Source: Elusimicrobiota bacterium (GTDB lineage Bacteria; Elusimicrobiota; Elusimicrobia; Elusimicrobiales; UBA9959). From it: DNA of 28,872 bases. The notes under the pieces are model-generated. The model did no database searches. It was not told the origin of the DNA and saw nothing but the letters and a program-made list of their open reading frames with translations. Where the stretch lies: positions 1 through 28,872 of the forward strand of contig JBAXKK010000025.1 of the NCBI GenBank assembly GCA_037137395.1. The letters run 5' to 3'. Below are positions 7,553-25,387 of this stretch, one piece after another; position 1 is the stretch's first letter; each line of letters starts with the position of its first letter. A program made the position numbers and the translations under genes.

Positions 7553-7857
7553 TATCTCTGCGAAAATTTTGGATACGCCCGGACAGGGAAGAATACTTTT
7601 TGTGCGGGGTAATGGTGACTTGCGTTATAGGCGGGTTCGTCTCATCCTATTGGCATTTCTCCGACCGCCTGGCGGTAAGGCCAAACATAAAAATCCATCA
7701 GCGAAAGATCTCAAAGGCGCAGGAGTCCCAGAAACTGAAGGAATCCCAGTTCTACGCCCCTAAATTTCGCGTCGGCACCACGCAGTATTACAAACTGGAA
7801 GAAAAAAGCGCACTTCCCAGGATACCCGACCTCCCGGAGGTTGATAGTGGGAATTAA
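7549..7857 (+). CDS. Small hypothetical membrane protein (one TM helix)
   Basis: ATGA overlap with the valS stop (translational coupling); hydrophobic stretch YFLCGVMVTCVIGGFVSSYW. Confidence 0.6.
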   Translation: MISLRKFWIRPDREEYFLCGVMVTCVIGGFVSSYWHFSDRLAVRPNIKIHQRKISKAQESQKLKESQFYAPKFRVGTTQYYKLEEKSALPRIPDLPEVDSGN

Positions 7858-8470
7858 CCGTATTTTTTTAGCGATGGCGCTCGCGCTCCCGTTCTTGACC
7901 GCGGCTCTGCCGGCCGCGGCCCAGTACGACAGCGACGCAAAACAGCAGGCTTTCGACTACACGCCCCCGGACGAAGAGACCTCACAGGTTCTGAAGGAGA
8001 TTATTTCCGTGGATTACGAAGACGCGGAACTGATAAACGATTCTGTCAGAGGCGTATTTATGGTTTCCAAAAGCCGCTGGAAAAGCTGGGTGGCGCGGGC
8101 CGTATATCTTCTGATAATGGATATAGCTCTGCTGGTAGTACTACTATCCCTGCCAAGGAACGAGGAACACAATATCATTATAGCCTACACCCTCTCCGGG
8201 GCCAGCGCCACCCTGAGCTATTGGGTTTTCCTGTGCGCCTGCGTACTCATAAGCCTAAAATCTTCGACATGGCTGCTTATTATGCCGCTGTCCATGGTAA
8301 TGGCTGTGGTAACCTATTTCGTCCTTATGAAAATAAAGCGTTCGGATATATCATTGGCCGGACTCAGGGAATCCTTCCAGAAGATGAGCGACCTCGCAAA
8401 CGAGGACACCAGGCTGACATCGATAGAAGGCCAGCCGAGCGACTGGCCTAACCAGGACTTTATCAAATAA
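7847..8470 (+). CDS. Hypothetical membrane protein (signal peptide, acidic periplasmic segment, ~3 TM helices)
   Basis: ORF 7841-8470; GTG at 7847 sits 6 nt after SD GGAGG; signal peptide ending ..LPAAA; three hydrophobic segments. Confidence 0.75.
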   Translation: MGINRIFLAMALALPFLTAALPAAAQYDSDAKQQAFDYTPPDEETSQVLKEIISVDYEDAELINDSVRGVFMVSKSRWKSWVARAVYLLIMDIALLVVLLSLPRNEEHNIIIAYTLSGASATLSYWVFLCACVLISLKSSTWLLIMPLSMVMAVVTYFVLMKIKRSDISLAGLRESFQKMSDLANEDTRLTSIEGQPSDWPNQDFIK

Positions 8471-8473
8471 AAT

Positions 8474-9403
8474 TTAAAACTGCATCCAAAAACCAAAACG
8501 GTGAATATTGCCAAGATCGCCGAATGGCAGATACGCGTAATCCACTCCTAAACCAGCTACTTTAAGTCCGAAACCCAGGCTCAAGCCGACCTCGGGACCG
8601 AGGTTGACGGTGTCGTAGCCGAACTTATATCCGCCGCGAAGCGCGAAGGAATCGCGGAACCAGTATTCCGCCCCAAAAGCGGGATAGAACTTTTCATCCC
8701 TGAAATACTCGCCCAGTTCACCGGTGAGGTTAAGCCGCGGAGAGAACTTGTAAAGCATTCCGGCTTTAAGACTGAGGGGCAGCGGATCTGAGACGTCTTC
8801 AAATTTCATCCCGGTGCCAAGATTCTGCATCACCAGAGAAAAATTCATTTTATCAGTTGCGTGGTAAATCGCACCGGCGTCCGCCGCGAAGGCGTAAGCA
8901 TTATTATCGTCTATGGACGAGCGAATAAACTTGATCGTCACGCCAGCGTCCAGATTGTCCAGCGCGACCGGGAAGGCGTCCTTCTTGGCGTAGGCCAGAG
9001 AAATAGCCAGGTCGTTGGAATCAAAGGAGCCGATATCCGGGACAACGCCCGCGGAATCAGTATTAGAGCGCCTCTCTATGCCGGGAACATTCATCAGCGT
9101 CACGCCAAGCCCGAAGCGGTTGTCCGCGATTTTGCCGGCGTAAGAAAAGTTCCCCATCTTAGCATCCTGAAAATAGTTGGTGAAGTCCACGCCCGCTTCC
9201 CTGTTATCGAACTGTGCCAGACCGGCCGGATTAACGAAGACCGCGCCGGAATCGTTGGCCAGCGGGCTGAATGCCCCCGCCATAGCCACGGCTCTGGGGC
9301 TCATTGCCGCCTTCAGGAACGGGGCGGCGGTAGTACCGGCCCCGGAGGCGTAAGCGCCAGCCGGCAAAGCCAGCGCCAGCACCGAGAATAGTATTTTCTT
9401 CAT
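8474..9403 (-). CDS. PorV/PorQ-family (FadL-like, UPF0164) outer-membrane beta-barrel
   Basis: Signal peptide, then GAGTTAAPFLK...PRAVAMAGAF...DSGAVFVNPAGLA (family N-terminal signature), LRGGY, GLSLGFG...DYAYLPFGDLGNIHRF, terminal Phe. Confidence 0.88.
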   Translation of the reverse strand: MKKILFSVLALALPAGAYASGAGTTAAPFLKAAMSPRAVAMAGAFSPLANDSGAVFVNPAGLAQFDNREAGVDFTNYFQDAKMGNFSYAGKIADNRFGLGVTLMNVPGIERRSNTDSAGVVPDIGSFDSNDLAISLAYAKKDAFPVALDNLDAGVTIKFIRSSIDDNNAYAFAADAGAIYHATDKMNFSLVMQNLGTGMKFEDVSDPLPLSLKAGMLYKFSPRLNLTGELGEYFRDEKFYPAFGAEYWFRDSFALRGGYKFGYDTVNLGPEVGLSLGFGLKVAGLGVDYAYLPFGDLGNIHRFGFWMQF

Positions 9404-9441
9404 AAGTTACCTCTTCAGCAAAATATCCGTTAACCTTAACC

Positions 9442-9528
9442 CGAATCCTTTAGTCAGGATTCGCCCGGAACATGGCAGTTAACACACTATACTTAACTCC
9501 TCAACTTTTAAAACGCTTGTTACTGCCA
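9442..9528. repeat. Intergenic hairpin (9442-9463) and inverted repeat (9473-9484 / 9518-9528) enclosing 8-bp-period units
   Basis: cgaatcct-ttagtc-aggattcg; tggcagttaaca vs tgttactgcca; minus-strand aagttgag gagttaag resembles aagttcag gagttttg at 4725. Confidence 0.55.
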
Positions 9529-9547
9529 AACCTTCCAGCCATCAGCC

Positions 9548-12500
9548 TTATTTAATTATCGCCATCTTATGCGCCTTATTGCCTAACTTCTTGCCGTCCA
9601 GGTAGGTCAGCATAAAGTAAACGCCTGAAGCGCAATCCTGGTTGGTGTCGTTCTTGCCGTCCCATTCGGAATAGAAAACTTCTCCGCTGCCGGTGGTTAT
9701 CGTCCGGACGCCTTCATCTATAGTCCTGACCTTTTCTCCGGCCAGGTTATAGATCACGAACTTAAGATCGCCAGATTTTCCGGCGGGGAGATGATATTTT
9801 ATAATTGTGCCCCGCACAATATGTGCCCCGGCGGCTATGGCCGCTCCGCCGTCCGCGCTTATGGTAACAGTTTTATCTTTAAGATTGAACGGATTCGGCA
9901 TATTGTAAACTTCGTATGACGAACCGATATACGCAACACCACTGCCGGGTTTGGCGGTGAACACCGCGAACTTGCCGGTCTGAAGTGCGGGCGCCGCGCT
10001 GGAAACATACCGCCCGTTGCCCACCGCGCTCATCTTGAAGCGCTTGCGGCCCAGCGGAGTATTGGAACCGCCGGTACCTTCGTAGGCTAAGTTAAGATTA
10101 ACAATATCAACCGCGATAACTCCGGTCATCGGGTCCACTGTGTAATTGCCGGGAACTTCCTTCCATTGGCCGGAGAGTTCGTCATACTGATAGATCCGAA
10201 GGTTACCGGTACCTATCACCCGCTCTTTATCATACTTTAGCGTGAGGGTGAATGGTTTGTTGACATCGGCATTGGAAAGGTCCATATTGTATACTTCAGA
10301 TGCCATCAGATCCTGCAGAGACGCCTCTATATTCAGGTTGCCTTTGGCCGTCTTTACCGTCCGAACCGAGGGAAGGGCGCTGAAGAATCCGCCGACCAGA
10401 TCCTGGAAATTGACATCTGAAACCGAAGAAGTGGAATAGGACAGCGTGCCCGCATCAAGCTCCATGCCGGAATATTCCTCTTTTTCCTTATCCATGCTGA
10501 TCTCGCCTCCGGCCAGGGCTTCTTCCTGTATGTACTGCTCTGTTTTGGCGTCGCTGACCTGGTCGTACACCACAACCTTTTTCATTTTATTATTGTCTCC
10601 CGCCGACACGCAGACGCTGTAAGTCGGCTGGTTCCGTGAGACGGTAAACTCTCCCAGATAAGTATTATCGGGGCCAAGTTCCAGCGTGAGGATGACCGCC
10701 GATGTGGAAGCGCAGACCGTGTCATCCGCGGAAGCCGCTTCGTAGGTATCCCCGGCGTTGTATTTGCACACGGGGGTGGAAATCAGTTCTCTCGGACTAC
10801 GTATTTCCACATTTACCTTATTGACTGAATCAGCGTTCCGGCGCACTTTGACCATAATCTGAGGCGGAATATCTCTGAGCACGATGTCATCCAGCACGGT
10901 GACACCGTCCGCCGCGTCGTTGACATCCACGATCTCCGGCATCTTGCCGCTGAACATGGCAGAAAGTTTGTATTTATGGCCGGGTATGACGCCGCGCACT
11001 TCGTAATATCCGGCGTCGTCGGTCTGCACTTCCATTTTGGGCAGATAGGAAGACGGCGCTTCAACATTCATGGTCTCGTCGTAGGCTACGATCTTGACCC
11101 CGGCCTTGGTAACCGGAGCCGGGAACTTACTCATGTAAATTTTGCCGGTTATCTTCGATTCGGAAGGCCGCATGAAGAAGTTGAATTCCGCCTCGTCGTT
11201 GCCGGCGAGACTGGTTTTCTGACCTACGGTCACGAAACCATCCCTGGTCACTTCGAGCCTGTAGATGCCGGTGGGCAGGTTTGAAAATCTGTAGGCCCCG
11301 GAGGAGTCGGTTACGACGAATTTTTCGACAGTCCTGTGCTTCAGGCGAACCAAGGCGTTCCCCACGAATGCGGAGACAGCCTCGGAACTCTTGACCACAC
11401 CATGAATCGTGCCCACGACGCTTTTCTGGGCGTCGAAATCGAAGGGGGTGGTCTCCTCGGAACCGGACCGTGGCAGGGTAACATCCGCGGTTACGGGCGG
11501 ATAATTAGGGTTAACATACACAGCGGTATATCTGCCCGGAGGTAGCCCCCACGCCATGTAGCGCAGCGGATTATCAGCGAGCGAATTTATGATGGTGGTC
11601 GTGCTGCGGGTTTTAAGGCCGCTCTCGAACCCTACCAGACCGACCGCGTCCGGCATGGCGTTAGTAAAAGCCCTCAAGTCGCCGGCATTATCGTACAGCA
11701 TGACGGCCGGGATGACGCCCATGATCTCCGAGTCGAAGTTAGAGAATATCTTCTCAAAATCTCCGGCCGTGAATATCTTATCGCCTATAACCCGGCCCTT
11801 CATCTCCGCCTGGCCCAGAGAGCCCTTAATATTTATTGGGATAGGCTGGGTAAGGGTGCCGAGATTCGCGTTATTATAATCCTTCTGTATGGCCACATTC
11901 TTCACACGGCCAATGAAGGTAGCGAACTGGTCGCAACTCGCCCCGACGCTTTTGCCGCAATCATAATTGGCGCCTACAACCAGATAGAAGTCGTATTGGC
12001 CGGGCTCCATAAACTTTTTATCCCAGCTGCCAGAGCCAGCGTCGTAGTTGAAGGAATACTGCGGCTGCTCAAAGAACATCTCGGTTATATTCTTCTGATT
12101 CATCTGGAAACCGGAAGGCACGCCCAGAACTGTATAGCTCCAGGTAGCCGTGGAAAGCGCCTGCAGGCCGATGATCTGCGGCTGTACCGTCAGACCGTCC
12201 TTCAGCTTTAGCTTGACCTCGGTAGTATTTCCCAGAGTAACGCGCACATTCTCCACTTCCACTGGGGGCCAGCGGAAAGCACCGCCTTGCGGCCTGAGGT
12301 ATACATTATAGAGGCCGGGCGGCAGGTTAGGGAATTCAAAATTTCCGAATTCATCCAGGCCGGTGCCGGAGTTATATTGCACATTAACGCCTCTCACATC
12401 TATACTGGCGGTCATATAGCCTGAATCGTCACCCACCAAACCATAGACGGGCTTGAAGCTGGTGCCGTCTGGCATCTTGACAGCCCCGCGCAGCGCGCCG

Positions 12501-15500
12501 GAGCGGGTCAGAGTGAAATCCATGGCGGCGGCAGTAGCGGAAGTCAGGTCGACCCGGTCGTTAAAGTTGGACATCTTGCCCCATTCGCCGGACATAACGC
12601 TGGCGTAATAAGAGAAGCCGGAGGAGAGCGTCACCGAATAAGTGGTGGCGTTGCTGGTGAACTCGCCGGAGATTGAGGCGAACCCCATCTGCCGGTTCTG
12701 ACAGTTCCCGCCCTCGCAATACTGGGTTGCCATGATGGTGACCGGCGACTCCACCGGCACGACTAGCGGCATTTCGGCGCTGACCGTGTAGGTGGTGACA
12801 AACATCACCGTGCCGGAAAGAGTGCCGGCGGTGTTGCCGCTGTCCGGAGTCAGATTGAACGTCACAAGGCCGGCGGACTGGCAGGTGCCGGTACTGTCAA
12901 GTATCCAATTAGCCCCGGGCAGGCAGGGATTGCCTCCCGGCTCGCTGGGGCCGGTGGCCCCGGAGGAAGAAATTATTATTTTCAAGTCGTCAGAGTTGCC
13001 ATTGGTGCCGTCCGGGCCGTTATTCAGGTCTCGCCAGTTGCCCATAAAATCCATATTCACGCGTACGCGGCCGTCCGGCAGTCCTTCAGCTGTAAATAAA
13101 CCGTCCGCCCCTGTACGGATCTGTGCGTCGCTCTGCATAGCGCCGTTCCAATAACCGGAATAGGAGTCGTCCCCTGTGCCGGTGGACCAGTCGCCATATA
13201 CCATGACGCGTGCGTTGGGCACGGGTATACCGTTGTATTTAATCAGGCCGGTTAAGGTATAAGTGGCCGGGAAAAGCGCGTACTCGCGGTATTGCGCCAC
13301 GGCGCCGGCGGTGTTGGTTCCCGCCGACACGCTTGAAATCATTATCATGTCAAACCAACTGCGCGAGCCCTGTTTCTTAACATTCACATTATACGGCGTG
13401 GAAGTGGAAGGTAGATTATAGAAGCTGAATTGGCCGTTGACGTCAGTAAGATTCTCATAACTAAGCGCTTTAGAACAGGTGTTGGCCCCTGAACACTGAT
13501 TTATAAATAATTCTATCCTTGCGCCCTCCAACGGGACCATGGTCGGACTGCTGCGCACCACGCCCTGAAAAGAGGGAGGCACGGTGGAACCGGAGGTGTC
13601 AAAACCGCCGCTGGAGGAAATAGCGCTGGACATATTGACCGTGTAAACCGAATCGGCAGGAAAGGCTGTGTCCAGGAAGAAATTCAGGAACTTATTCTTC
13701 CCCGGCACGCTCAAAGCCACGCCGTAGGTTCCGGCCGGGGCGGAGGGAACGTTAAAAATCTGAAGCTGGCCGGCCGGGGCGCTGGCCGCCAATACTCCGT
13801 AGGCTACTTTTTCGCCGGTCCTGTTGACTGAAACCTCGCCCATCAGAAAGTCACCGGGAGTCAGGCCCTCGGAAACATTGACTGTCAGTGTGCTTACCGG
13901 ATCAGCGGCCGTACGGGGATAAAGCGAGAAATCCTTGGTAACATCGCTTGTTAGCGTAAGGTAAAAATTGCCGCTGGGGTCCATCAACTGGTCCTTTATG
14001 GTAGGCACATAGCCTGGTGTGGAAAGGCCGATAAAATACTTTAAACCGCCAGGCACGGCGGCCGAGAATCTGCCGTTGGCGTCCGTGGCGCTGACCCGGA
14101 TGCCGGCGGGGTCCATCCCCCCGGTCTGGTTAAACGCTAACAAGATCACATTCACATCCTTCAGCGGCGTACTGGTGCCGTTATACTTCACGGACGCGGT
14201 GATAATCGGATTGGTGGCGGAAGTGCTGAACTGCTTATACTTGAAATAACCTGCGGCGTACTGGTAATTGACTCCGTAACTGTAGCTGCCCGGCACATAG
14301 ACGAAACCTGATGGGTCAACTGCTATATCCTCAGCGTACTCGTAGGAGTTACCGGAACTATTAAAGGTATTGGTCCAGACTATGTCGCCGGTTCCGGTAT
14401 TGTATTTCCTGAAGAACAGGTTGTATCCCTGATTAAGGTCGCTGCGGTTCTCATAGCCGCTGATATACGCGCCGCTGCTCGCGTCAACCGCAAGGCCCTG
14501 GATTGATTCGTAGGAGTTGGCCGGTGAATTGTAGGTGCTGGACCAGACCTCGGAGAGTGAAGGTGTGAGTTTAACAATAAACATATTGTCATACTGATAC
14601 TGGTCATACACGCTGCCAGCGGCGTAGATGCTGCCGGCGTCGTCGACTTTGATCGCATTGGCGGATGAGTAACCGTAGGGCGCGGAAGGACAATACTTTT
14701 TATCTACGACGAATGTCAGTGCGGTATCGAACTTGCCTATCCAGAAGCAGGCGGTGGAGGTGTTTATGCCCGCTTGGCCTGACACATAGAGATTGCCGTC
14801 AAACGCGTTGTAGGTTATCCCCGCGGCGCGGACCGAGCTGTAGGCCCCGCTATAGGCCGCGGAAGCCAACAGAACTCCGGCTTGAGAGTATTTGGCCAGA
14901 AGAGCGGCGCCATTTGACATATTCGCGCCTGACCCCCCCTCGTTATACTGACCAGCCAGGTAGATGTTCCCGTCTGACGCGGCCGTTAAGCCGCTAAAAT
15001 CCTCATAAGCGCCCCGTGAAGGAATGGTCCGGGACCAGAGTAATTCTCCGGCGGCGGAATACTTGGAGATATAGGGATTGGTACCGGCAGCGTCCCTTCC
15101 GGAACCGGCGATGTAAACATTACCGGCAGCGTCGCTGGCTAAGGCGCGCAGGCCGCTACCATTGCCCGAGAAATAATAGCGTACCCATTGCAGAACGCCG
15201 CTCAGATTATACTTTTTAAGGATGACGGAAGATGAGGCGTCGCCCTGTGATGAATAGGTCTGGATGGCCAGATAGAGATCTCCCGAAGCTGCGCGGACCA
15301 TTTTGACCGGACTGGTAGTGTTAAGGCCCGTGGTCAGGTTAAGCTGACCGAGCGGATATGGGTATGAAGTCTCTGAAATCACTGGAATATTCGGCAATGC
15401 GGAGGGATTGCCGATTACCGTAGAAGTACTGCTGCCAGTATAATACCAGACATTGAAATAGTACGGCGCTGTTGTATTGCCGCGCGCGTCGCGGCCGGCA

Positions 15501-18500
15501 GTGAGATCGCCCGCTTTAATGCGGACAAGGGAACCCTCGGTATATGCCTGGGGCTGGTATTGATACGGCGTAGGATAAGATTGCTTCGCGAGGGCTAAAT
15601 CCCAGCCGCCGTTCCAGGTGCTGGCCTGCACGTAATAAGAGGTTCCGGCCGGCAGAGCGACGCCGGTGATCCAGGATAGTTCCGCGCCGCCGGGCACGGT
15701 TCCTGTGATCGCGGTGACACCAGCGGACATGGCCGCCGCCGGCGAACTGAATTTGAAGCTGCCGAACTGCCTGTTAACCGTGGTGGAAATAACCACGCTC
15801 AGGTTGAAGTCCCCCCGGCTGTCTATAACGATATTCACGGGGGATATAGGCCCGGTCAGGCCCGCGTTAGGAAACTTCTTGCTCCACATATAACTGACAT
15901 CGGAAGGGTTTAATTTCTGGAACCATAGTGTTTCTACGGGATATATCTGGCGGCCGGCGGCGAAAATCTCTCCGGTCGCGGTGGAAATTGTAAGCGTTCT
16001 GAATTCGCTGGCGGCGCCCGTGGCGGAAACGGAAGCAACAACACCGGCCGGAGATATCCTGGCTGCCCAGGCGTCCAGTAGGTCGGAGCCGGTAACATAG
16101 ACCTGACCGGCGGCATAAACGTCTCCCCACGTAGAAATCTTCACGGCATAAGGAATATTATGTCTGTCCGTACGGTACTCATAAAAGAAAGGATTGTTGG
16201 TCCAGGTTGAGGAAAGCGCAAGGGAAGAATCATACTTAATAAAAATCATCTTATAATGGGCTGGATCCGATCCGGACGCATTGACCATGGATTTACCGGC
16301 CACATAAACGAAACCATCGGCTCCAGCGTCTATAGCCATTCCTTCATCGGTAGAGCCGCCGTCATAGATTTGAGCCGTAGGACTGCCGGCCGCGGTGTAT
16401 TTAATCACTATGATATCTGACCCGGAAGTTTCCTCAACTTTGCCGGTTATATAAATATTGCCGGAAGCATCGGTTGTCACGGCTTTTACGGAATCATCGC
16501 CATGACCGGAGCCGTCATAAGTTCTGGTCCAGAGCTGATTGCCTTCGGCGTCCAGCTTGCTGACCCATATATTATCACCCTGCGCAAGCGAGGGAGCGCT
16601 CTCTTCGCCAGCTATTATAATATTGCCGTCCGCATCCGCGGCTATGGCGGAAGAGTTGTAGGTGGCGGAAAGTTCGCCGTGATAGAAGCGTGTCCACAGA
16701 AGTGTCCCGTAGGGGTTGTATTTTCTGAGAGCAATACCCGCGTTATCAGCTCTTGCTACGCCTAAATTCGCGCTGAAAAGCATATAGGTGTTGCCGGCAT
16801 TATCGCGGGCCAGCGAAGGGCCGGAGGTCCAGTCCATGACAGACACGCCGTCCAGCCGCTTGAGCAAATTACCATCCGCGCTGGTGATCACGCTTTCGGT
16901 TAGAGCTGCGGGGACATTTGTATAGGCGGTAACAAGGTTGGGGAGGGCGGTAAGAATTGTTCCGTTGTAATACCAGACTTTAAAAGCATACATAGGCGAA
17001 CTGATATTGTTCAGGGCGCCGCGTGCGGCCTGCAGGCCTCCGACCGTGTGAGTTTGCGCTGACAAAGCGGGCACAGCGGCATTGAGGGAAAACTCTGTCG
17101 CGGAAGCAGTGGACCAGTTGACGCTGTGAAAAGTGCTGTACTGAACATAATACTTGGAACCAGCCGGCATGGCGGCCGGATAGAGCCAGCTCAGGTTCAC
17201 GGAACCGGTGAAAGGCCCCTTATCGGCCAGAAGCTCGGAGGAGGACGAGGTCATATCCAGTTTATATATGCCCAGACTGCTCATATTCGTTCCCATACTC
17301 ACATTTGGAAAACTTCCGACGGCGTATATAACGCCCAAACTGGAAACTTTAATATCGTAACCCTCCTCATAACCCTTATTGTAGTCCACGCTTCTAATCA
17401 TCAGGCGCGCGCCGCCGGGCGAATATTTCAGCAGCAAAAGATTGCCACCCTGGTATATGTCGCTACGATATTCACTGCCGGTAACATAAGCGTTGCCGGT
17501 TAGGTCCAGTTCCAGCGCCGCGCCGGAGGCCATATTACCACTGTAGGAATAAAGGTCCTGCCATTGTTGAATAAGCGATGAATCGTACTTCGCGGTCCAA
17601 CAGGCATTATTATACGTGGCGGAACTGTAATACGAACCGGTAACAAAAACACTGCCCGAAGCGTCTATCTTTATTCCCTTTCCCTGGTCGTAATTGGGAC
17701 CGCCTGCGGTAACCGCTCCAATCTGCGTCGGGACCGTGGGCCAGGTATCTCCATATTTCTCCACAAAGATATCGTCGTTATTGCGGACATTCCTGGTGCC
17801 GACCACGTAAATATACCCCCCATACAGCGATATCCCGTTGCCGGCGTATGAACCGGACTGCGCGTTGGAATAAAAAGCGCTCGTCCCCTGTTGGACGCCA
17901 TTCTTGTTGAATTTCGCCAGCCACAGATTTCCGGTGCCGGAATACTTCTCGCCCGCGGTGTATATCTCGGTAGAGGAATTGATCGCAATAGAGTTGATGC
18001 GGTTATTGTTGGACATGTCCGCCGCAATGAGCTTCGTCCACAAGATATCTCCGTTGGCGGCGTATTTTCTCAGTATGATATTAGCGCCTTTGTCTATCCT
18101 GCCAGCTATTACCAGGTTCCCGTCAGGCCCGAGTGCCAGAGCGGTAGCCTGATCATTGGTCCAATCCGAACCGGAGAGACTCATCGTGCTGTTGTACGCG
18201 CGGTACCACGACACGGCGCCGGACGGTAAAAATTTTATAAGGGTAATCGCTGACGATGAGTTTGTCCCGCCGGCGCCCGCTGTTGATGATGAAATCACCA
18301 TGGAAGTGAGCGCGTAATAATTCCCGGACGAGTCTACGGCAAGCTTGGACCCGTAACCGCCGCCCTGGGAGTTTATGGACAGCACAGAGCCGGCAGCCAG
18401 CGCCAGAACGCCTGTAGAAGGCGCGGACGGGGTCAAAGGAATAGCTGCAACCGATGTGACTGGGACGGAAACGACACCGATGTTTTCTATCCAAACATGA

Positions 18501-18838
18501 AAGTAGTATATGAAAGCGGGGGCGGAACCATTACGGCCATACTCCAGACCGCTTACGCGCAGATTCTGCGCCCCGATAGTGGTAGTGGTTATCACTATCT
18601 GCGCCGAACCGGTAGAGATCCATGGCCCGTTCGTAGTGTTGTACTGAATATAAAATTTACCCCCGGCAAGCGCTTCCGGAGCGTTCCATGAAAGACTAAC
18701 CGAGCCGTTATAGTCGCCGCTGACCGCGCTAAGTCCGTTAGGGGGAAGGGTAGCAGCGGCTCCGGCGCCTCCGATCAATCCGGCCAATAGACCGGCGGCG
18801 ATCGTCAGAGTTAAAATAGTTTTTCTAATGTTAAACAT
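9548..18838 (-). CDS. Giant (3096 aa) secreted surface protein: 3x (Fn3-like + SBBP-type beta-propeller), multiple carboxypeptidase-regulatory/prealbumin-like domains, C-terminal FlgD-Ig / T9SS type-A-like sorting domain
   Basis: Signal peptide; SD AGGAGA; many blades of form xAVDxxGNxYxxG...xxKYxxxGxxxW; TD.NG.F.F..L..G.Y motifs; C-terminal YNMPNPFN...IYNLAGEKVRTI...WDGKND...ASGVYF...KMAIIK. Confidence 0.9.
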   Translation of the reverse strand: MFNIRKTILTLTIAAGLLAGLIGGAGAAATLPPNGLSAVSGDYNGSVSLSWNAPEALAGGKFYIQYNTTNGPWISTGSAQIVITTTTIGAQNLRVSGLEYGRNGSAPAFIYYFHVWIENIGVVSVPVTSVAAIPLTPSAPSTGVLALAAGSVLSINSQGGGYGSKLAVDSSGNYYALTSMVISSSTAGAGGTNSSSAITLIKFLPSGAVSWYRAYNSTMSLSGSDWTNDQATALALGPDGNLVIAGRIDKGANIILRKYAANGDILWTKLIAADMSNNNRINSIAINSSTEIYTAGEKYSGTGNLWLAKFNKNGVQQGTSAFYSNAQSGSYAGNGISLYGGYIYVVGTRNVRNNDDIFVEKYGDTWPTVPTQIGAVTAGGPNYDQGKGIKIDASGSVFVTGSYYSSATYNNACWTAKYDSSLIQQWQDLYSYSGNMASGAALELDLTGNAYVTGSEYRSDIYQGGNLLLLKYSPGGARLMIRSVDYNKGYEEGYDIKVSSLGVIYAVGSFPNVSMGTNMSSLGIYKLDMTSSSSELLADKGPFTGSVNLSWLYPAAMPAGSKYYVQYSTFHSVNWSTASATEFSLNAAVPALSAQTHTVGGLQAARGALNNISSPMYAFKVWYYNGTILTALPNLVTAYTNVPAALTESVITSADGNLLKRLDGVSVMDWTSGPSLARDNAGNTYMLFSANLGVARADNAGIALRKYNPYGTLLWTRFYHGELSATYNSSAIAADADGNIIIAGEESAPSLAQGDNIWVSKLDAEGNQLWTRTYDGSGHGDDSVKAVTTDASGNIYITGKVEETSGSDIIVIKYTAAGSPTAQIYDGGSTDEGMAIDAGADGFVYVAGKSMVNASGSDPAHYKMIFIKYDSSLALSSTWTNNPFFYEYRTDRHNIPYAVKISTWGDVYAAGQVYVTGSDLLDAWAARISPAGVVASVSATGAASEFRTLTISTATGEIFAAGRQIYPVETLWFQKLNPSDVSYMWSKKFPNAGLTGPISPVNIVIDSRGDFNLSVVISTTVNRQFGSFKFSSPAAAMSAGVTAITGTVPGGAELSWITGVALPAGTSYYVQASTWNGGWDLALAKQSYPTPYQYQPQAYTEGSLVRIKAGDLTAGRDARGNTTAPYYFNVWYYTGSSTSTVIGNPSALPNIPVISETSYPYPLGQLNLTTGLNTTSPVKMVRAASGDLYLAIQTYSSQGDASSSVILKKYNLSGVLQWVRYYFSGNGSGLRALASDAAGNVYIAGSGRDAAGTNPYISKYSAAGELLWSRTIPSRGAYEDFSGLTAASDGNIYLAGQYNEGGSGANMSNGAALLAKYSQAGVLLASAAYSGAYSSVRAAGITYNAFDGNLYVSGQAGINTSTACFWIGKFDTALTFVVDKKYCPSAPYGYSSANAIKVDDAGSIYAAGSVYDQYQYDNMFIVKLTPSLSEVWSSTYNSPANSYESIQGLAVDASSGAYISGYENRSDLNQGYNLFFRKYNTGTGDIVWTNTFNSSGNSYEYAEDIAVDPSGFVYVPGSYSYGVNYQYAAGYFKYKQFSTSATNPIITASVKYNGTSTPLKDVNVILLAFNQTGGMDPAGIRVSATDANGRFSAAVPGGLKYFIGLSTPGYVPTIKDQLMDPSGNFYLTLTSDVTKDFSLYPRTAADPVSTLTVNVSEGLTPGDFLMGEVSVNRTGEKVAYGVLAASAPAGQLQIFNVPSAPAGTYGVALSVPGKNKFLNFFLDTAFPADSVYTVNMSSAISSSGGFDTSGSTVPPSFQGVVRSSPTMVPLEGARIELFINQCSGANTCSKALSYENLTDVNGQFSFYNLPSTSTPYNVNVKKQGSRSWFDMIMISSVSAGTNTAGAVAQYREYALFPATYTLTGLIKYNGIPVPNARVMVYGDWSTGTGDDSYSGYWNGAMQSDAQIRTGADGLFTAEGLPDGRVRVNMDFMGNWRDLNNGPDGTNGNSDDLKIIISSSGATGPSEPGGNPCLPGANWILDSTGTCQSAGLVTFNLTPDSGNTAGTLSGTVMFVTTYTVSAEMPLVVPVESPVTIMATQYCEGGNCQNRQMGFASISGEFTSNATTYSVTLSSGFSYYASVMSGEWGKMSNFNDRVDLTSATAAAMDFTLTRSGALRGAVKMPDGTSFKPVYGLVGDDSGYMTASIDVRGVNVQYNSGTGLDEFGNFEFPNLPPGLYNVYLRPQGGAFRWPPVEVENVRVTLGNTTEVKLKLKDGLTVQPQIIGLQALSTATWSYTVLGVPSGFQMNQKNITEMFFEQPQYSFNYDAGSGSWDKKFMEPGQYDFYLVVGANYDCGKSVGASCDQFATFIGRVKNVAIQKDYNNANLGTLTQPIPINIKGSLGQAEMKGRVIGDKIFTAGDFEKIFSNFDSEIMGVIPAVMLYDNAGDLRAFTNAMPDAVGLVGFESGLKTRSTTTIINSLADNPLRYMAWGLPPGRYTAVYVNPNYPPVTADVTLPRSGSEETTPFDFDAQKSVVGTIHGVVKSSEAVSAFVGNALVRLKHRTVEKFVVTDSSGAYRFSNLPTGIYRLEVTRDGFVTVGQKTSLAGNDEAEFNFFMRPSESKITGKIYMSKFPAPVTKAGVKIVAYDETMNVEAPSSYLPKMEVQTDDAGYYEVRGVIPGHKYKLSAMFSGKMPEIVDVNDAADGVTVLDDIVLRDIPPQIMVKVRRNADSVNKVNVEIRSPRELISTPVCKYNAGDTYEAASADDTVCASTSAVILTLELGPDNTYLGEFTVSRNQPTYSVCVSAGDNNKMKKVVVYDQVSDAKTEQYIQEEALAGGEISMDKEKEEYSGMELDAGTLSYSTSSVSDVNFQDLVGGFFSALPSVRTVKTAKGNLNIEASLQDLMASEVYNMDLSNADVNKPFTLTLKYDKERVIGTGNLRIYQYDELSGQWKEVPGNYTVDPMTGVIAVDIVNLNLAYEGTGGSNTPLGRKRFKMSAVGNGRYVSSAAPALQTGKFAVFTAKPGSGVAYIGSSYEVYNMPNPFNLKDKTVTISADGGAAIAAGAHIVRGTIIKYHLPAGKSGDLKFVIYNLAGEKVRTIDEGVRTITTGSGEVFYSEWDGKNDTNQDCASGVYFMLTYLDGKKLGNKAHKMAIIK

Positions 18839-18947
18839 AATTTCTCCTAAAAAATGACCCTGGGAGCCGCAACATCTTCATCAGCTATGTGCTTTTAGGT
18901 CCGGCAGATCTCGTTGCCAGTCCCTCAGCCCCCTAAATCCCCTAATC

Positions 18948-20195
18948 CTAAAACTCCCATTCCAGACCCATCAGGTAATTGCTGGCCCGGTAGTTGTATT
19001 TGTAATTGGCCTCGTAGCGGGTGTTAGAACTTGCGATCTGGTAATTGTACCCCGCGCGGGCGAAAAACCTGTTCATGACCGGGTAGCGGACGGAGAGCGA
19101 GGTAAGCCAGGTGTCCTGGTTGGCTTTGGTCTTGGAATAATTACCCGCGTCGTCCTGCTTAAGACGGCCAAGATAATAAAGCTTTGAATAATCCACCGAG
19201 AACCCAAACATGGCGCCGTTCTTGAAACCAAAATTCATGGACGGAGAAACGCCGAACTCCACATAGCTGTAATAATCCTCTATAAACTTAGTCCTGGAAG
19301 CGTCATACGAGTTCTGGTTAGAACTCAAATAAGAAACACGGGAGCCGACAGAAAGCATCAGCGGTTTGATATTGCGGGTCAGCTTGAAAGTGATATTCTG
19401 AACCAGGTCTGATCGCTTATCGGCCTTGAAGAACGGCGAACCGGCCACGGGGCGTGCCACCACGGCCTGATCTCCGTAGCCGCGCCAGGTGAAATCGCAA
19501 CCGGCCTGCAGGACAAGAGGATCGGGGAACCAGGTATATGCGAAGCCCAAGCGGTGGTTCACATTGTCCATGGTATTGGCTCCGGCGTTAGCGGAAAGCT
19601 CGTTGAAAGTGGCGGTGTCTATAACGGTCTGAGATTTGGAAAGCAGTGTAGCGTAATTGCCATACTTTACAGAATAATAGTCGTAGGATTCGGTGAAGGT
19701 ACCGTACGGGCGCTCCTGCTCGGCCTCAAAGCCGGCGGAGAAAGTGGCGTAATCAAACAATCCATCACCCCATTTCTCGTCCTTGGTCTCGCTGATAAGA
19801 TTTTTAGAATAAGAGACTCTCGGCTTATACTTATCAAATTCCCGAGTGTTCACGTATTTCAAAGAAAAAGTGTGGCCCTGACGCTTACGCGTCAGAACGC
19901 CGCCGCCGGCCAGTTCCTGAATGTCCTGAGTGCCGTTATAGTAGCCCGAATAGACCGGGATAAGTTCGCTGGATTCCGAAAACTTGATATCGGACGAGAT
20001 GAAAGCGTCCGCCCTGCCTTGGAAAGAGGCCGCCTTATCATCCAGATAATACTTTCCCCCCATAAGAGAGATATTTGCCACCGGTATCACCTTTATCTGC
20101 GCGTAAAGGCGGGGTAAAGGTGCCAGCGCAGCGGGCAGAGCGATAAGAATAAAAAACCTGAATATTTTCAGGATTGGAATCTTCGTTTTTTTCAT
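18948..20195 (-). CDS. Predicted outer-membrane beta-barrel of unknown family
   Basis: Likely start MKKTKIP at 20195 (SD AAGGG; the ORF track extends to 20258); signal peptide; Tyr/Phe-rich alternating strands; C-terminal YLMGLEWEF beta-signal. Confidence 0.75.
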   Translation of the reverse strand: MKKTKIPILKIFRFFILIALPAALAPLPRLYAQIKVIPVANISLMGGKYYLDDKAASFQGRADAFISSDIKFSESSELIPVYSGYYNGTQDIQELAGGGVLTRKRQGHTFSLKYVNTREFDKYKPRVSYSKNLISETKDEKWGDGLFDYATFSAGFEAEQERPYGTFTESYDYYSVKYGNYATLLSKSQTVIDTATFNELSANAGANTMDNVNHRLGFAYTWFPDPLVLQAGCDFTWRGYGDQAVVARPVAGSPFFKADKRSDLVQNITFKLTRNIKPLMLSVGSRVSYLSSNQNSYDASRTKFIEDYYSYVEFGVSPSMNFGFKNGAMFGFSVDYSKLYYLGRLKQDDAGNYSKTKANQDTWLTSLSVRYPVMNRFFARAGYNYQIASSNTRYEANYKYNYRASNYLMGLEWEF

Positions 20196-20271
20196 ATTTA
20201 AAAGTCCCTTCTGTAATTGTTGACAATAAATCCGAAGTCTGGTTTCCCCGCGCGCCACTTGTTACTAGTTA

Positions 20272-21714
20272 TTAAAATCTCAATAGTCCGGCGTCCTTGA
20301 GCAGCTTGGCCGAGAATTCCAGATCTATCTTGCGGCCGCCAAAAAGCGAGCTCGTGTAAACCCTTTCAAAATTTAGTTTATCCGTTACCGTGTCCATGGT
20401 TTCGTCAAGCCGCGAGGCAAAATCACCCTTGCTCACGATTTTACCATCGTCAAAAACCACGTAGTCGGCGGCCTGTATCCAGGTTCCGTCGCTGTAGGTA
20501 TTCTTGACCACGGTATTAAACACGTCCTCCCCGGCGGGAAAAAGGGTAATTCCGGCCGGCGCGGAGCCTCCCAGGAATGACATCTCTCCGGACTGAATAG
20601 CGTTGTCGGAGTTTAAATCGGTGTAAGACCATAGGTTCTTGCCCAAGCCTCCGTTATCACCGGCCTCGGCAGGCCCTGCCGCGTAAACCGCGTATTTGGG
20701 AAAGAAATGCGTCCACACGGAAGGATTGGAGGCGTTATCCGCTACCATCTTTCCTCCGGAGGCATCCTCCGTAACCTTATCAATAGTGTTGGACATGACG
20801 CTGTTCATAGCGGTGAGCGTCCACTCCGGCGCGACGGAGCCGGTGGCACTGGTCATGTTGCTGGTGGCAAACGTCAAATCGTCAGGAAGAGCTTTATCGA
20901 AAGTAAACAGTATTTTCCCGAAATCGAACCGGTCCGCGCGCGTATTTAGAACAACATACTTGAACTGATCGGCCGCCGGGCGGATGACATACTCTTCCAT
21001 GCGCACGCGATTGCCGAAGGCATCTATCGCCACTTTACGGTTCTGGTATTCTGAGGACTGTATTTCCTGCTGGGCCCTGGAGATAACGTCCTCTTTGGAA
21101 ATTTCGCCGTAGATCTCCTTCCTGGCAAGCGTAACGGGATCACCTATTAAGGAATCCATATTGGAGGGCGAACCCGAGTGCCCTCTGGGAGAGCCTACGG
21201 TCCCGCCGCGCGGAATCTCGCTAAATTCTCCTTGGCGCACAAGTATTGTGCGGCCCTGGGCGTCACCGGCAAGAACCGTGCCTTCGTACACCTCTACGCG
21301 GGTATTGCCGCCCTCATCGGAATAAACCAAGAAATCCGTGCCGCGCACGGCGCAGACCGCTGAAGGAGTGCGCACTTCAAATTTGCGCGATAATTTCTTA
21401 ACCCAGGATCTGACTCGGCCAAAGTAAAGGCCCAGCGAAACAACATCTTTGTTTTCGGCGCTCATTTTAAAAGCTGTGACCGGCGCCAGTTTTATCCTGG
21501 AACCGTCTTCCATATAAACCTCGGCGGTGGAGGCGCGCGCGGTGCGGATTTCATCGCCCTCGTTTAACGCAATTTTTTTCTCTTCACTTAGCCTGACCCA
21601 TTCGGCGGTCCCGGTCTTTTTCAGGCTTACCTCCCCCCGGTAATCGGAAAGATACGCCGCCGAAGAAAGGCCGGAAAAAACAGCAACCGCTAACAAGGAC
21701 AATATATATCTCAT
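20272..21714 (-). CDS. Secreted FecR-domain protein with an unknown C-terminal domain
   Basis: Signal peptide, then GDEIRT...DGSRIKL...FEVRTPSAVCAVRGTDFLV...TRVEVYEGTV (FecR domain); SD AGAGG. Confidence 0.88.
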   Translation of the reverse strand: MRYILSLLAVAVFSGLSSAAYLSDYRGEVSLKKTGTAEWVRLSEEKKIALNEGDEIRTARASTAEVYMEDGSRIKLAPVTAFKMSAENKDVVSLGLYFGRVRSWVKKLSRKFEVRTPSAVCAVRGTDFLVYSDEGGNTRVEVYEGTVLAGDAQGRTILVRQGEFSEIPRGGTVGSPRGHSGSPSNMDSLIGDPVTLARKEIYGEISKEDVISRAQQEIQSSEYQNRKVAIDAFGNRVRMEEYVIRPAADQFKYVVLNTRADRFDFGKILFTFDKALPDDLTFATSNMTSATGSVAPEWTLTAMNSVMSNTIDKVTEDASGGKMVADNASNPSVWTHFFPKYAVYAAGPAEAGDNGGLGKNLWSYTDLNSDNAIQSGEMSFLGGSAPAGITLFPAGEDVFNTVVKNTYSDGTWIQAADYVVFDDGKIVSKGDFASRLDETMDTVTDKLNFERVYTSSLFGGRKIDLEFSAKLLKDAGLLRF

Positions 21715-21866
21715 AATTTTAAAACCTCTTTAACTTCACCGCACACAGCTAACAGAAGGCACCACGCCGTCCGCAGAATATTCATCGGGGCAATTGCCTG
21801 AGTTTAAACTCCGGTAATTTACGATTGTGTTTTTAAACTCAACTCATATCCCTAATCCCTATCAGT

Positions 21867-21895
21867 ATTATAGGCATCCGTTTCCAGCATGTCAA
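21867..21895 (-). promoter_or_regulatory. Perfect-consensus sigma70 promoter for the FecR/barrel/giant protein/PorV cassette
   Basis: Minus strand TTGACA (21895-21890), 17 bp (tgctggaaacggatgcc), TATAAT (21872-21867). Confidence 0.85.
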
Positions 21896-22078
21896 CCAAT
21901 CCGATATTACTGTGACTTACGATACATATTAGCCGCGCTTATTTAGACATGTTTTCTCGGCAGTCTTTGATGAACCATTTTTATCATAAACAACACCGCG
22001 CGTTGGCGCGTTTAGGCCCTAAAAACAGTTACAGGTCCGTGTAGTGCCTGCCGGTTTAATTATGCGGCAATCGTTTTA

Positions 22079-22087
22079 TGCTAAAAT
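22079..22087 (+). promoter_or_regulatory. Extended -10 (TGcTAAAAT) upstream of the polyprenyl synthetase gene
   Basis: 12 nt before the ATG; no SD visible. Confidence 0.45.
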
Positions 22088-22099
22088 ATTTTTTATCCC

Positions 22100-23062
22100 A
22101 TGAATAAGACCCTTTCCATTGACGATTCTCTAAGCCACATAAATCTGGAAATTAATTCGCTGCTGGACCGCGTGGACAAGGCGATATATGACCGCAGCAG
22201 GAACGACTTCAATTTTATGGGCAAGGCCGTCAGGTCGCGCTTCACGCTACTGCTCGGAGACGCGCTCGGCCTTCCGCGTGCCGCGGCCGAACGAATAAGC
22301 GCCGCGGCTGAGCTTATCCACACAGCCTCACTTATGCACGACGACTGCGTAGACAGGTCGGCTCTCAGGCGCGGCCTGCCCACGCTGAACGAAAAGCTGG
22401 GTGTAAATACGGCCATACTGATTGGGGACCTGGTTGCATCATTCGCTTTTGATTACGCTATTAATATCACACCCGAAACACCCGGCGAACTTGTAAGGAC
22501 CGTGCGCAGGATGACTGAAGGCGCTCTCCTTGAAGAAAACCTCCGCTACAATAAGATTTCGTCCGAACAGGCGGAACGCATCTTACAGCTTAAAACCGGA
22601 GAACTCTTCCGCTGGTGCGCCACAACCGCGGCATGCGGGGCGAAAAGGCCGGAGTTGCGCGACGCCTGCGAGACTATAGGCAGGGAAACCGGAGTAGTCT
22701 TCCAGATTGTGGACGACATTCTGGACTTTGAAGGCGAAACCGGACTGACCGGCAAGGACGCGTTGAAGGATATCACGGAGGGCCGCACCACCCTCCCCCT
22801 GATACTGGCCATAAACGATCCCCGCTTCTGCGAAGAAATAGAAAAAAATCTGGTATCCTTAAAAACCGGAGAGAACAGAGACCTGGCTCCCGCGCTCCGC
22901 ATAGCGGCCATCATAAGGGAGAATGGATTCACCGATACTGCCCGGGCTCTGGCCGCGGCAAAAATTATCGGCCTTGAAGCGGAGATCGCGCGCCTGCCCG
23001 AACGAAAAGCGGCCGGCGCCTTCAGGGATTACATTTCTGCCTTATCAACGCGGACGAAGTAA
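22100..23062 (+). CDS. Polyprenyl diphosphate synthase (IspB/HepT-like)
   Basis: ELIHTASLMHDDCVD..RRG.PT (FARM), KTGELF, FQIVDDILD (SARM), GKDALKDITEGRTTLP. Confidence 0.93.
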   Translation: MNKTLSIDDSLSHINLEINSLLDRVDKAIYDRSRNDFNFMGKAVRSRFTLLLGDALGLPRAAAERISAAAELIHTASLMHDDCVDRSALRRGLPTLNEKLGVNTAILIGDLVASFAFDYAINITPETPGELVRTVRRMTEGALLEENLRYNKISSEQAERILQLKTGELFRWCATTAACGAKRPELRDACETIGRETGVVFQIVDDILDFEGETGLTGKDALKDITEGRTTLPLILAINDPRFCEEIEKNLVSLKTGENRDLAPALRIAAIIRENGFTDTARALAAAKIIGLEAEIARLPERKAAGAFRDYISALSTRTK

Positions 23063-24016: not shown

Positions 24017-24089
24017 CCGGTATTATTTGGTTTACGGCTTTTTTTTTTATAGAGTATTATGTACACAAATGCTGTTTGGAGGATTAAAG

Positions 24090-24632
24090 ATGAAGATAAA
24101 TATTTTCCTGGTAAGCCTGCTTTCCATTTTTATGGCGCTGTCCGCGGTTTCCTGCAACAAGAAAAACATTAAAAATCCCGGCAATAAAACCGATATGATT
24201 ACCGATTTCGCCGCCAACCCGGCTCTGGATATACAGGAGAGCACCAATACAATGAGCACGGAGGGCAATATCCGGGGCGGGGAGTTCGTTTACCAGGAAA
24301 CAATACAACCCATATATTTCGAGTTTGACATGTACGGCCTTTCGGATGAGGCGCGAAAAACTCTGCAGAAAAACGCCGACGTCCTGAAAGCCAGAAAGGA
24401 TTGGACCGTTCTGGTGGAAGGATACTGCGACCTCCGCGGAACCGTAGGATACAATCTGGCCCTGGGCCAGAAACGGGCCAAGGAAGTCAGGGATTATTAC
24501 ACCCGCCTCGGAGTGCCGGAATCATCCATAGGAACTATTTCATACGGCAAGGAAAAACCGTCCTGCGTGGAAGAAACCGACGCTTGCTGGTCGAAAAACA
24601 GAAAATCAGAAACCAAGGTGAAATCTAAATAA
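24090..24632 (+). CDS. pal: Peptidoglycan-associated lipoprotein Pal (OmpA-C domain)
   Basis: Start moved to ATG 24090 (SD GGAGGA); lipobox LSAVSC; IYFEFD, VEGYCDLRGTVGYNLALGQKRA, ISYGKEKP, WSKNR. Confidence 0.92.
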   Translation: MKINIFLVSLLSIFMALSAVSCNKKNIKNPGNKTDMITDFAANPALDIQESTNTMSTEGNIRGGEFVYQETIQPIYFEFDMYGLSDEARKTLQKNADVLKARKDWTVLVEGYCDLRGTVGYNLALGQKRAKEVRDYYTRLGVPESSIGTISYGKEKPSCVEETDACWSKNRKSETKVKSK

Positions 24633-24633
24633 T

Positions 24634-25377
24634 ATGAAGATTTTTTTAAAAACCGCAGCAGTCCTGTTCGCGCTCACCCCGCTCTGGGGCTGCGTGGCGA
24701 CACAGCAGGACATGCTCCAGATGCAGAGCCAGATGGACGACCTGAACACTAACATAAACAACATGCAGAAGAACCAGGCCGACCTGGCGCTGAAAATAGA
24801 CTCTCTCTCCACCAACCTCAATGTTTTCTCCGAAAACCTTAAGGATATAATCTCTCAAATGGCCCGCCTTTCAGACCGCCTCGACGAACTGGACGCTATG
24901 ATGAATAAGCGCGTTAACGCCATAGGCGCCACCATTAAAAAACAGCAGGAGGATATGGAATCGGCTCTTTTGCCCGCCAAGATTTACAACGACGCCTACA
25001 ACTCTTTCCTAAACAACAACTTTGACGGAGCCTCAGCCGGCTTCAAGGCCTACCTGGCCAAGTTTCCCGCGGGGGAACTGGCAGAGAACGCCTATTTCTA
25101 TCTAGGCGAATCGCTTTATCTGAAGGAAAAATGGCAGGATGCAGCCCTCAGCTACGCCACCATCCTGGACAAATTCCCCAAGTCGCCGAGGATACCGGCG
25201 GCCAGACTTAAGTACGCCCTGTCCATCCTTAAATTTCCAGAGGACAAAAAGGCTGAATCCCTGAAGTATCTGGAATCCATCACCCGGGACTACCCCAAAT
25301 CGCAGGAAGCCGGCACGGCCAGGACGTATATCGCAAAACTGCGCCAGCCTAAAGCAAAGATAGAAAAGACCAAGTAG
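24634..25377 (+). CDS. cpoB: Tol-Pal protein CpoB/YbgF (coiled coil + TPR), predicted lipoprotein
   Basis: Lipobox LWGC; long coiled coil; TPRs (F..YLAKFP..ELAENAYFYLGE, KFPKSPRIPAARLK); 1 nt after pal. Confidence 0.85.
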   Translation: MKIFLKTAAVLFALTPLWGCVATQQDMLQMQSQMDDLNTNINNMQKNQADLALKIDSLSTNLNVFSENLKDIISQMARLSDRLDELDAMMNKRVNAIGATIKKQQEDMESALLPAKIYNDAYNSFLNNNFDGASAGFKAYLAKFPAGELAENAYFYLGESLYLKEKWQDAALSYATILDKFPKSPRIPAARLKYALSILKFPEDKKAESLKYLESITRDYPKSQEAGTARTYIAKLRQPKAKIEKTK

Positions 25378-25387
25378 ACCGCCTCAG

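Follow-up and report, generated by a model that had tools for sequence, protein, structure and literature searches.

A four-gene cassette of Elusimicrobiota encoding a giant cargo protein and its putative cognate PorV-family barrel

We analysed a 28,872-nucleotide stretch of an Elusimicrobiota genome (contig JBAXKK010000025.1 of assembly GCA_037137395.1; hereafter, the window) that carries four genes related in part to type IX secretion systems (T9SS). The four open reading frames (ORFs) lie on the minus strand in the order FecR-domain protein, outer-membrane barrel, giant cargo protein and PorV/PorQ-family barrel, with lengths of 480, 436 or 415, 3,096 and 309 aa. The features of this cassette, in window coordinates and all on the minus strand, are:

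21867..21895, minus strand: sigma-70-type consensus promoter TTGACA-17-TATAAT (read 21895-21867), 153 nt before the first ATG
20272..21714, minus strand: secreted two-domain protein with a FecR domain, 480 aa (PF04773, structure model, hydropathy)
18948..20195, minus strand: outer-membrane beta-barrel of an unnamed family, 415 aa, with ~16 amphipathic strands (hydropathy and alignment pattern)
9548..18838, minus strand: giant cargo protein, 3,096 aa (ORF and domain scans)
14219..18754, minus strand: variable N-terminal part of the cargo, three related ~505-aa modules with SBBP-type beta-propeller repeats (phmmer, PF06739, NF047494)
9551..14212, minus strand: conserved core of the cargo, ~1,550 aa (core profile, PF13620)
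9935..10330, minus strand: MAIN/GAIN-like domain of the cargo, ~residues 2837-2968, with a 39-residue insertion (within 9956-10123) replacing the HxS motif (hhalign)
9551..9910, minus strand: type A-like C-terminal domain (CTD) of the cargo, ~120 aa, FlgD-Ig-like; its nearest counterparts are the PorU and PorZ CTDs, which stay uncleaved
8474..9403, minus strand: PorV/PorQ-family barrel, 309 aa (NF033709, 169 bits), apparently cognate to this cargo family

A preliminary description, made from the sequence alone, had reported four co-directional genes with signal peptides, under one perfect promoter and opposite in orientation to their flanks. ORF coordinates, hydropathy and a promoter search agree with it: all four proteins open with a hydrophobic, signal-peptide-like stretch lacking a lipobox (by a crude hydropathy test), the immediate flanks on the valS side and the polyprenyl-synthase side are on the plus strand, and the promoter is the sole 12/12 site among 16 promoter-like sites in 7000-23000. 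It had also noted the absence of an extracytoplasmic function (ECF) sigma factor, a TonB receptor, porKLMN and sprA, and we found none of these among the 19 window ORFs scanned. The barrel ORF (18948-20258) encodes 436 aa from a GTG; the public protein record starts at the ATG at 20195, giving 415 aa, and this ATG is most likely the gene start. Across the host genome we observed ten 12/12 promoter sites, against ~0.64 expected from base composition. Two further perfect promoters lie before a gene for a 178-aa protein that is nearly CTD only (C16:29519-30055) and before a gene for a 4,731-aa giant (C17:10697-24892). Upstream of the FecR gene, 30 of 52 related loci have a site scoring 10/12 or better, compared with 21 of 98 operon-first control genes; for sites of at least 11/12, the counts are 13/52 and 7/98. 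At third codon positions, the four genes have a GC content of 0.62-0.65, close to valS (0.64) and tolB (0.66), with ligA at 0.56. Nothing here points to a recent acquisition, and we reject a recent foreign island.

The host belongs to Elusimicrobiota and lies outside the Fibrobacteres-Chlorobi-Bacteroidetes (FCB) group, a point that had been set beforehand as a test of the preliminary description. Its LigA is 93% and 68% identical to those of two genomes titled Elusimicrobia and 41-48% identical to those of the other three genomes tested, one of which also has that title. Where homologues of the barrel or of the FecR protein carry a name, it is nearly always Elusimicrobiota: among 78 named barrel loci, the remainder are a few titled 'bacterium' and one each titled Clostridia, Deltaproteobacteria and Sumerlaeota. 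Together, the LigA identities and these homologues rule out an FCB host.

PorV-family genes are numerous in the host genome (2.70 Mb assembly, 98.9% complete, 7.7% contamination). We counted 17, 13 of them above cut-off; 14 of the 17 sit 10-779 nt behind a gene with a CTD-type tail, and one of the remaining three is at a contig end. Cargo-then-PorV is the rule in this genome, and 12 other such pairs have neither a FecR gene nor a barrel gene beside them. The window's PorV scores 169 bits with NF033709 (cut-off 90) but does not reach the thresholds of the equivalog models for PorV and PorQ; the PorP/SprF model matches it at E 0.007 only. In a quick tree of 62 PorVs, with support from the Shimodaira-Hasegawa-like approximate likelihood ratio test (SH-aLRT), it falls in a group of 33 (support 99) made up solely of PorVs from cassettes that share the cargo core. 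A separate group (support 99) holds 14 PorVs of cassettes whose cargo has an HxS motif, and 15 of the host's other PorVs lie outside both groups. By this phylogeny, the window's PorV belongs to a lineage dedicated to this cargo family. Two small genomes titled Deltaproteobacteria and Sumerlaeota (G302 and G303; loci L127 and L130) carry the barrel and 33 and 34 PorV-family matches; the PorV expansion may reach beyond Elusimicrobiota, or these titles may be wrong.

The tail of the cargo matches the C-termini of the PorU model (E 1.2e-4) and the PorZ model (E 6.5e-3), whose CTDs are not removed on secretion (PMC11285876, partial text). We detected no PorU sortase (peptidase C25) in the host genome. 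Of 201 genomes of the phylum searched, two were positive (loci L160, L161 and L162), so the C25 search works. Given this resemblance and the lack of a detected sortase, the CTD would be retained on its own PorV.

The domain immediately before the CTD points the same way. Thirteen of 38 cassette cargos have a beta-rich pre-tail domain that ends strand-HxS-strand (seven HFS, three HLS and three HAS), whereas the other 25, including that of the window, have 27-41 extra residues exactly at the HxS place. In the window protein, HxS is absent and the 39-residue inserted loop is basic. HFS or HLS also occurs 103-117 residues from the end in 6 of 18 CTD proteins of the host genome. A profile built from 18 such pre-CTD domains of Elusimicrobia matched 12 of 61 genomes in the class of a Clostridia-titled record (best E 3.6e-12). 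Among eight of these loci that we inspected, seven have HFS and in seven the domain is directly followed by SLH repeats. A comparison of the 25 insertion-type domains with the eight Clostridia-class domains by hhalign gave a probability of 96.8 (E 2.9e-10, 68 columns), and in the alignment the insertion begins opposite HFS. In a model of a truncated, 109-aa version of one such domain (from locus L044; predicted local distance difference test (pLDDT) 72), HFS lies in a turn between strands 91-98 and 102-106, before the last strand. The profile also gave one plasmid match, in a Persicobacter record.

MAIN domains cleave within HFS without letting the pieces separate, and they lie after the ectodomain and before the wall anchor, in the architecture signal peptide, ectodomain, MAIN, anchor (Brogan and Rudner, 10.64898/2026.05.12.724683, partial text), and related ZU5 domains in bacterial surface proteins had been noted earlier (PMC3482391, partial text). 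On the profile comparisons, the window's pre-CTD domain is related to such self-cleaving domains of the MAIN/GAIN type. Since the window protein lacks the HxS motif, we do not count it as an active MAIN protein, and its release is probably controlled differently from that of its HxS relatives. The pre-CTD domain is homologous to domains that directly precede SLH anchors; the CTD would therefore fill the anchor slot, and the bond between CTD and PorV would be lasting. The link between a MAIN-like domain and a CTD is new here; the main text of the MAIN preprint, in the part available, mentions neither T9SS nor Elusimicrobia. We conclude that PorV is probably a lasting anchor rather than a shuttle. 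The preliminary description had called it a shuttle; its assignment to the PorV family stands, and the shuttling role gives way to probable anchoring in view of the MAIN-like domain before the CTD.

Upstream of these anchoring elements, the cargo has two parts. Residues 29-1540 comprise the three related SBBP-type propeller modules, each ~505 aa long (phmmer matches any two of them at E 1e-28 to 1e-39; a blastp self-comparison of the giant found no repeats), and these modules are absent or replaced in relatives. Residues 1543-3096 form the core, with tandem carboxypeptidase-regulatory/prealbumin-like domains, the MAIN-like domain and the CTD. A core profile built from 14 of these sequences aligns over almost its whole length with the giant, with its paralogue on host contig C4 and with cargo proteins at 25 related loci; relatives range in length from 1,477 aa (core only) to more than 5,000 aa. 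We read this as an invariant stalk and base carrying a tip that can be swapped. No catalytic domain was matched in the domain scans of the cargo, and the domain anatomy suggests that the three propeller modules have an adhesive role. The gaps beside the giant gene (9404-9547 and 18839-18947) fold into hairpins of -37 and -30 kcal/mol, values obtained without a shuffle control, and these hairpins could set the ratio of the gene products. Rfam gave no match anywhere in the window, hairpin gaps included.

We looked for the four-gene set in 60 loci from 59 of the 110 barrel-positive genomes, taken from listed higher-scoring matches with room on the contig. The exact gene order occurs in 36 loci; eight more have FecR-barrel with the remainder cut off, and in the last 16 the order is different or is interrupted by an edge or an additional ORF. 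The FecR gene adjoins the barrel gene in 57 loci, and all four gene kinds share one strand in 46. Thus, the synteny raised as a question in the preliminary description is conserved in relatives. The barrel stands alone in two loci (L042 and L047). A second cassette, on host contig C4, has the order cargo-PorV-barrel-FecR, and four genomes of the host's family (loci L006, L007, L009 and L010) carry both types in tandem, cargo-PorV-barrel-FecR followed by FecR-barrel-cargo-PorV, whereas in the host the two are on separate contigs. Distance correlations among the four genes across 34 loci are all 0.75-0.84; being uniform, they indicate co-inheritance, single out no pair and are not evidence of binding.

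The barrel gene is present in 110 of 301 genomes of the phylum and in 21 of 22 genomes of the host's family. It is found in 3 of 88 genomes of family f2 and 0 of 89 of family f14, which have small genomes and are probably gut and endosymbiotic lineages. Both families mostly keep an SprA-like gene (86/88 and 51/89), which argues against the FecR-barrel pair as a general component of the export machinery.

The FecR domain itself scores 66 bits with PF04773 (cut-off 24). The protein consists of a signal peptide, this domain (~20-180), two helices and a conserved open beta-meander (~223-468) without family assignment, and its best NCBIfam matches are Leptospira Lsa33 and LipL45, below cut-off. In a structure model (pLDDT 88), the N-domain matches PupR 6ovm_R (Z 17.6, root-mean-square deviation (rmsd) 2.5, 136 residues aligned) and 4m0h (Z 15.6). 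The C-domain is built of long antiparallel strands; its fold matches in the whole-protein search (Z at most 6.2) are generic barrel walls that indicate no family, and the ESM Atlas gave no usable match for it. Conservation is highest in residues 223-320, at 0.82 versus 0.69 for the FecR domain. Anti-sigma regulators of the FecR/PupR type have a cytoplasmic sigma-binding part and an inner-membrane helix, and are linked to an ECF sigma factor and a TonB-dependent receptor. Here, the FecR domain directly follows the signal peptide and the top 19-residue hydropathy past residue 40 is 0.84, indicating no transmembrane helix; an anti-sigma role is ruled out, since there is neither a membrane helix nor a cytoplasmic part. 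CTD profiles found no CTD-type tail on the protein. The host encodes two more secreted FecR-domain proteins that lack the conserved C-domain (C59:14545-15288 and C5:24901-25824), the former near a cargo-PorV pair.

The barrel has ~16 amphipathic strands from residue 35, ends in EWEF and has no N-terminal soluble domain, as read from the hydropathy pattern and a hand-read alignment. Its family (~400 aa) has 587 representatives at E<=0.001. Pfam gave no match for the window protein, with OMP_b-brl matching 5 of 87 relatives, and the barrel profile had no sequence match in PDB. Long loops alternate with short turns; conservation is 0.56 in the eight long loops, 0.41 in the strands and 0.31 in the seven short turns of 3-7 residues. 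In the usual barrel topology, long loops face outward; because they are also the most conserved part here, a conserved partner site is more likely outside. We therefore propose, tentatively and with a little less than even confidence, that the barrel and the FecR protein together act as an accessory unit of a surface fibre and face outward. Some relatives of the barrel have long N-terminal extensions (ORFs of 550-950 aa), and the extension at L048:2370-4688 reads like a passenger domain.

The same figures bear on the claim of the preliminary description that the FecR protein and the barrel make a pair spanning periplasm and outer membrane. In that arrangement, a periplasmic FecR protein would dock on the inward side of the 16-strand barrel, and the two would sense or scaffold with no sigma factor involved; cargo and PorV would behave as we propose. 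The fold of the N-domain is that of the periplasmic signalling domain of PupR (Z 17.6), a protein without a CTD-type tail has no evident exit via SprA, and the adjacency of the two genes in 57 of 60 loci would suit such a pair. However, the FecR protein lacks the transmembrane helix and cytoplasmic part of its regulatory namesakes, and its best NCBIfam matches are Leptospira surface proteins rather than FecR (E 9e-12 vs 9e-3, all below cut-off). On the barrel, it is the short turns that are least conserved, and there is no N-terminal soluble domain. The conservation of turns and loops (0.31 vs 0.56) disfavours the earlier claim, and we consider a periplasmic pair unlikely.

We also considered whether the FecR protein and the barrel could be the cargo's own export or assembly machine, of a two-partner or type 11-like kind, making SprA unnecessary. 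At 46 of 60 loci all four kinds of gene are found jointly, a strong promoter is conserved ahead of them, no motor was found, and an ESM Atlas lead points to a Bacteroidota cluster in which 32% of members have SlipAM (score 0.97). SlipAM nonetheless matches none of 87 sequences of the barrel family, POTRA or TPR domains would not fit into the barrel protein, the host's 12 other cargo-PorV pairs do without the FecR-barrel pair, and families f2 and f14 retain the SprA-like gene while nearly lacking the barrel. We regard such a machine as very unlikely.

Candidates for the export route lie outside the window. A genome search for SprA/Sov found one SprA-like ORF (1,776 aa, contig C6; TIGR04189, 112 bits, E 1.4e-32, below cut-off), in addition to the 16 further PorV-family genes. 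A 600-aa piece of this protein matches 259 of 301 genomes of the phylum, mostly once each. GldL, GldM and GldN were not found in the host genome, nor GldM in any of 201 genomes of the phylum, in searches without a positive control. GldK models gave only weak partial matches to three ORFs (the strongest at E 3e-19 and 70 bits, where the cut-off is 350). Given the genome-wide PorV set and the SprA-like gene, we consider the locus to be one client of a genome-wide system. Hence, the dedicated cargo-plus-shuttle module of the preliminary description holds as regards a PorV dedicated to the cargo family; it does not hold as a self-contained unit, since the SprA-like gene is elsewhere and 12 pairs lack FecR and barrel genes. 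Its suggestion of a divergent CTD-dependent system is borne out by a PorV family and a CTD-like tail outside FCB, with no ring or motor detected. We give little credence to a near-canonical T9SS whose ring and motor are too divergent to detect and whose PorV is a passing shuttle that hands on or releases its cargo: the Gld searches lacked a positive control, the partial GldK-model matches exist and the assembly is imperfect (98.9% complete, 7.7% contamination), but the pipeline that found GldM in 0 of 201 genomes did find a divergent SprA, a release domain immediately ahead of the CTD would be pointless unless the CTD itself remained anchored, and one PorV serves all type A cargo in Bacteroidota (PMC12618676, partial text) against 17 here.

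On balance, we lean towards a reading in which the operon builds a large cell-surface fibre, with the cargo held by its own PorV and the FecR protein and barrel as accessories. All four proteins would be exported by Sec, and the 3,096-aa cargo would pass the outer membrane by way of the only SprA-like pore that the genome encodes. The cognate PorV would then capture it, and the uncleaved CTD would stay bound, as those of PorU and PorZ do in Porphyromonas. Cargo of relatives is predicted to be shed by self-cleavage at HxS; that of the window, having no HxS, would stay attached or be cut by another protease in the basic inserted loop. In the weakest step, the FecR protein and the ~16-strand barrel would serve one fibre family as an outward-facing unit.

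Several observations weigh against this fibre reading. The cargo tail scores 16.3 bits with TIGR04183, below the type A CTD threshold of 23, so that the type A assignment in the preliminary description survives as a resemblance to the C-termini of PorU and PorZ and not as a family match. The SprA-like protein, too, is under its family cut-off (112 vs 200 bits) and has no phmmer match in PDB. The ring and motor went undetected, in the uncontrolled searches described above, which leaves the energy source unexplained; in Flavobacterium, the motor is needed to release the substrate-carrier complex from the translocon (PMC10994853, partial text). As for the pre-CTD domain, the MAIN-like profiles had no significant sequence match in Pfam or PDB, and a search for longer proteins with the domain returned almost solely the same cargo family. 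Fold matches of the truncated 109-aa model all had Z<5, with the GAIN domain of BAI3 (4dlo_B; Z 4.7, rmsd 2.0, 55 aligned) tied with many Ig domains. When a profile of the eight Clostridia-class domains was run against all 6,360 host ORFs, the six matches at i-E<0.5 were all CTD proteins, the giant among them (i-E 0.05), but this reverse search is not independent, since the eight domains had been found with the Elusimicrobia profile. The strand limits behind the barrel's conservation figures were set by hand. Long loops that fold into the pore are often conserved too. Three of the 60 loci (L053, L058 and L063) have a FecR gene and a barrel gene without cargo or PorV, as does host contig C18, where a divergent FecR gene (625-aa ORF) and a barrel gene flank a gene for a 251-aa secreted protein with no cargo or PorV nearby (C18:19875-23840, L067); the pair need not serve a fibre. 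Finally, with no CTD on the FecR protein, its way out of the cell is unexplained if the unit faces outward.

Elsewhere in the window are a pal-cpoB-tolB cluster (24027-26680), a lone NTF2-fold immunity gene (PF15631, 26718-27065) and a short IS5-like transposase remnant (27347-27844).

Known systems resemble the cassette in different parts. Among them are the T9SS attachment pairs PorV-PorU and PorQ-PorZ of Porphyromonas gingivalis (PMC11285876, partial text), which share a PorV/PorQ-family barrel and a long CTD of the PorU/PorZ kind; in contrast, the present host is outside FCB and has 17 barrels, mostly one per cargo, a 3,096-aa repeat cargo and no detected PorU or GldKLMN. Type B CTD cargo and PorP/SprF of Flavobacterium johnsoniae (PMC12618676, partial text) likewise show a barrel gene directly downstream, cognate pairing and adhesin-like cargo, whereas here the barrel is of the PorV family and the tail type A-like. 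In the cassette, the one-cargo-one-barrel logic of type B is thus found with a tail that is type A-like and a barrel from the PorV family. Proteins with MAIN domains have a homologous domain after the ectodomain and before the anchor, but in the cassette the anchor slot holds a CTD rather than SLH repeats or a sortase signal, and the window protein has an insertion for HxS. FecR/PupR regulators (PDB 6ovm and 4m0h) share the FecR-domain fold; the window protein differs in lacking a membrane anchor, in its unrelated C-terminal domain of 250 residues and in that the 19 window ORFs include neither a TonB receptor nor a sigma factor. Barrels of type 11 systems (Slam/DUF560) have 14 strands and an N-terminal TPR part; for the window's barrel, the hydropathy pattern suggests ~16 strands from residue 35, and SlipAM matched 0/87 members of its family. 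We conclude that the cassette probably works like the T9SS attachment pairs and is not a canonical T9SS, because no PorU sortase was found and the host lies outside FCB.

Literature searches, whose coverage excluded subscription journals, found no prior description of the cassette. The main text of a preprint on giant genes (10.1101/2023.11.21.568195) contains no T9SS, PorV or SprA term, and a paper containing both 'Elusimicrobi' and 'T9SS' is, in its available text, unrelated to the cassette (PMC12204202). According to a 2024 paper, phyla other than those of FCB lack T9SS genes (PMC11285876, partial text); here, a carrier, a signal and a translocon-like gene occur across a phylum without a detected motor or sortase. 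A more speculative picture, which we hold to be possible though less likely than not, is that Elusimicrobiota have a motor-less offshoot of T9SS in which CTD-PorV pairs are permanent anchors, a diderm counterpart of SLH and sortase anchoring, combined with force-triggered shedding by MAIN domains; one fibre family would have swapped self-cleavage for a loop and recruited a base of barrel and surface FecR protein. The finding makes testable a minimal CTD-dependent system, and the exit of cargo from SprA without a rotary motor. With the link between CTD-PorV and MAIN, a release mechanism known chiefly from proteins anchored in the wall would extend to an anchor in the outer membrane, for which cargos with HxS and cargos with the insertion offer a natural on/off pair.

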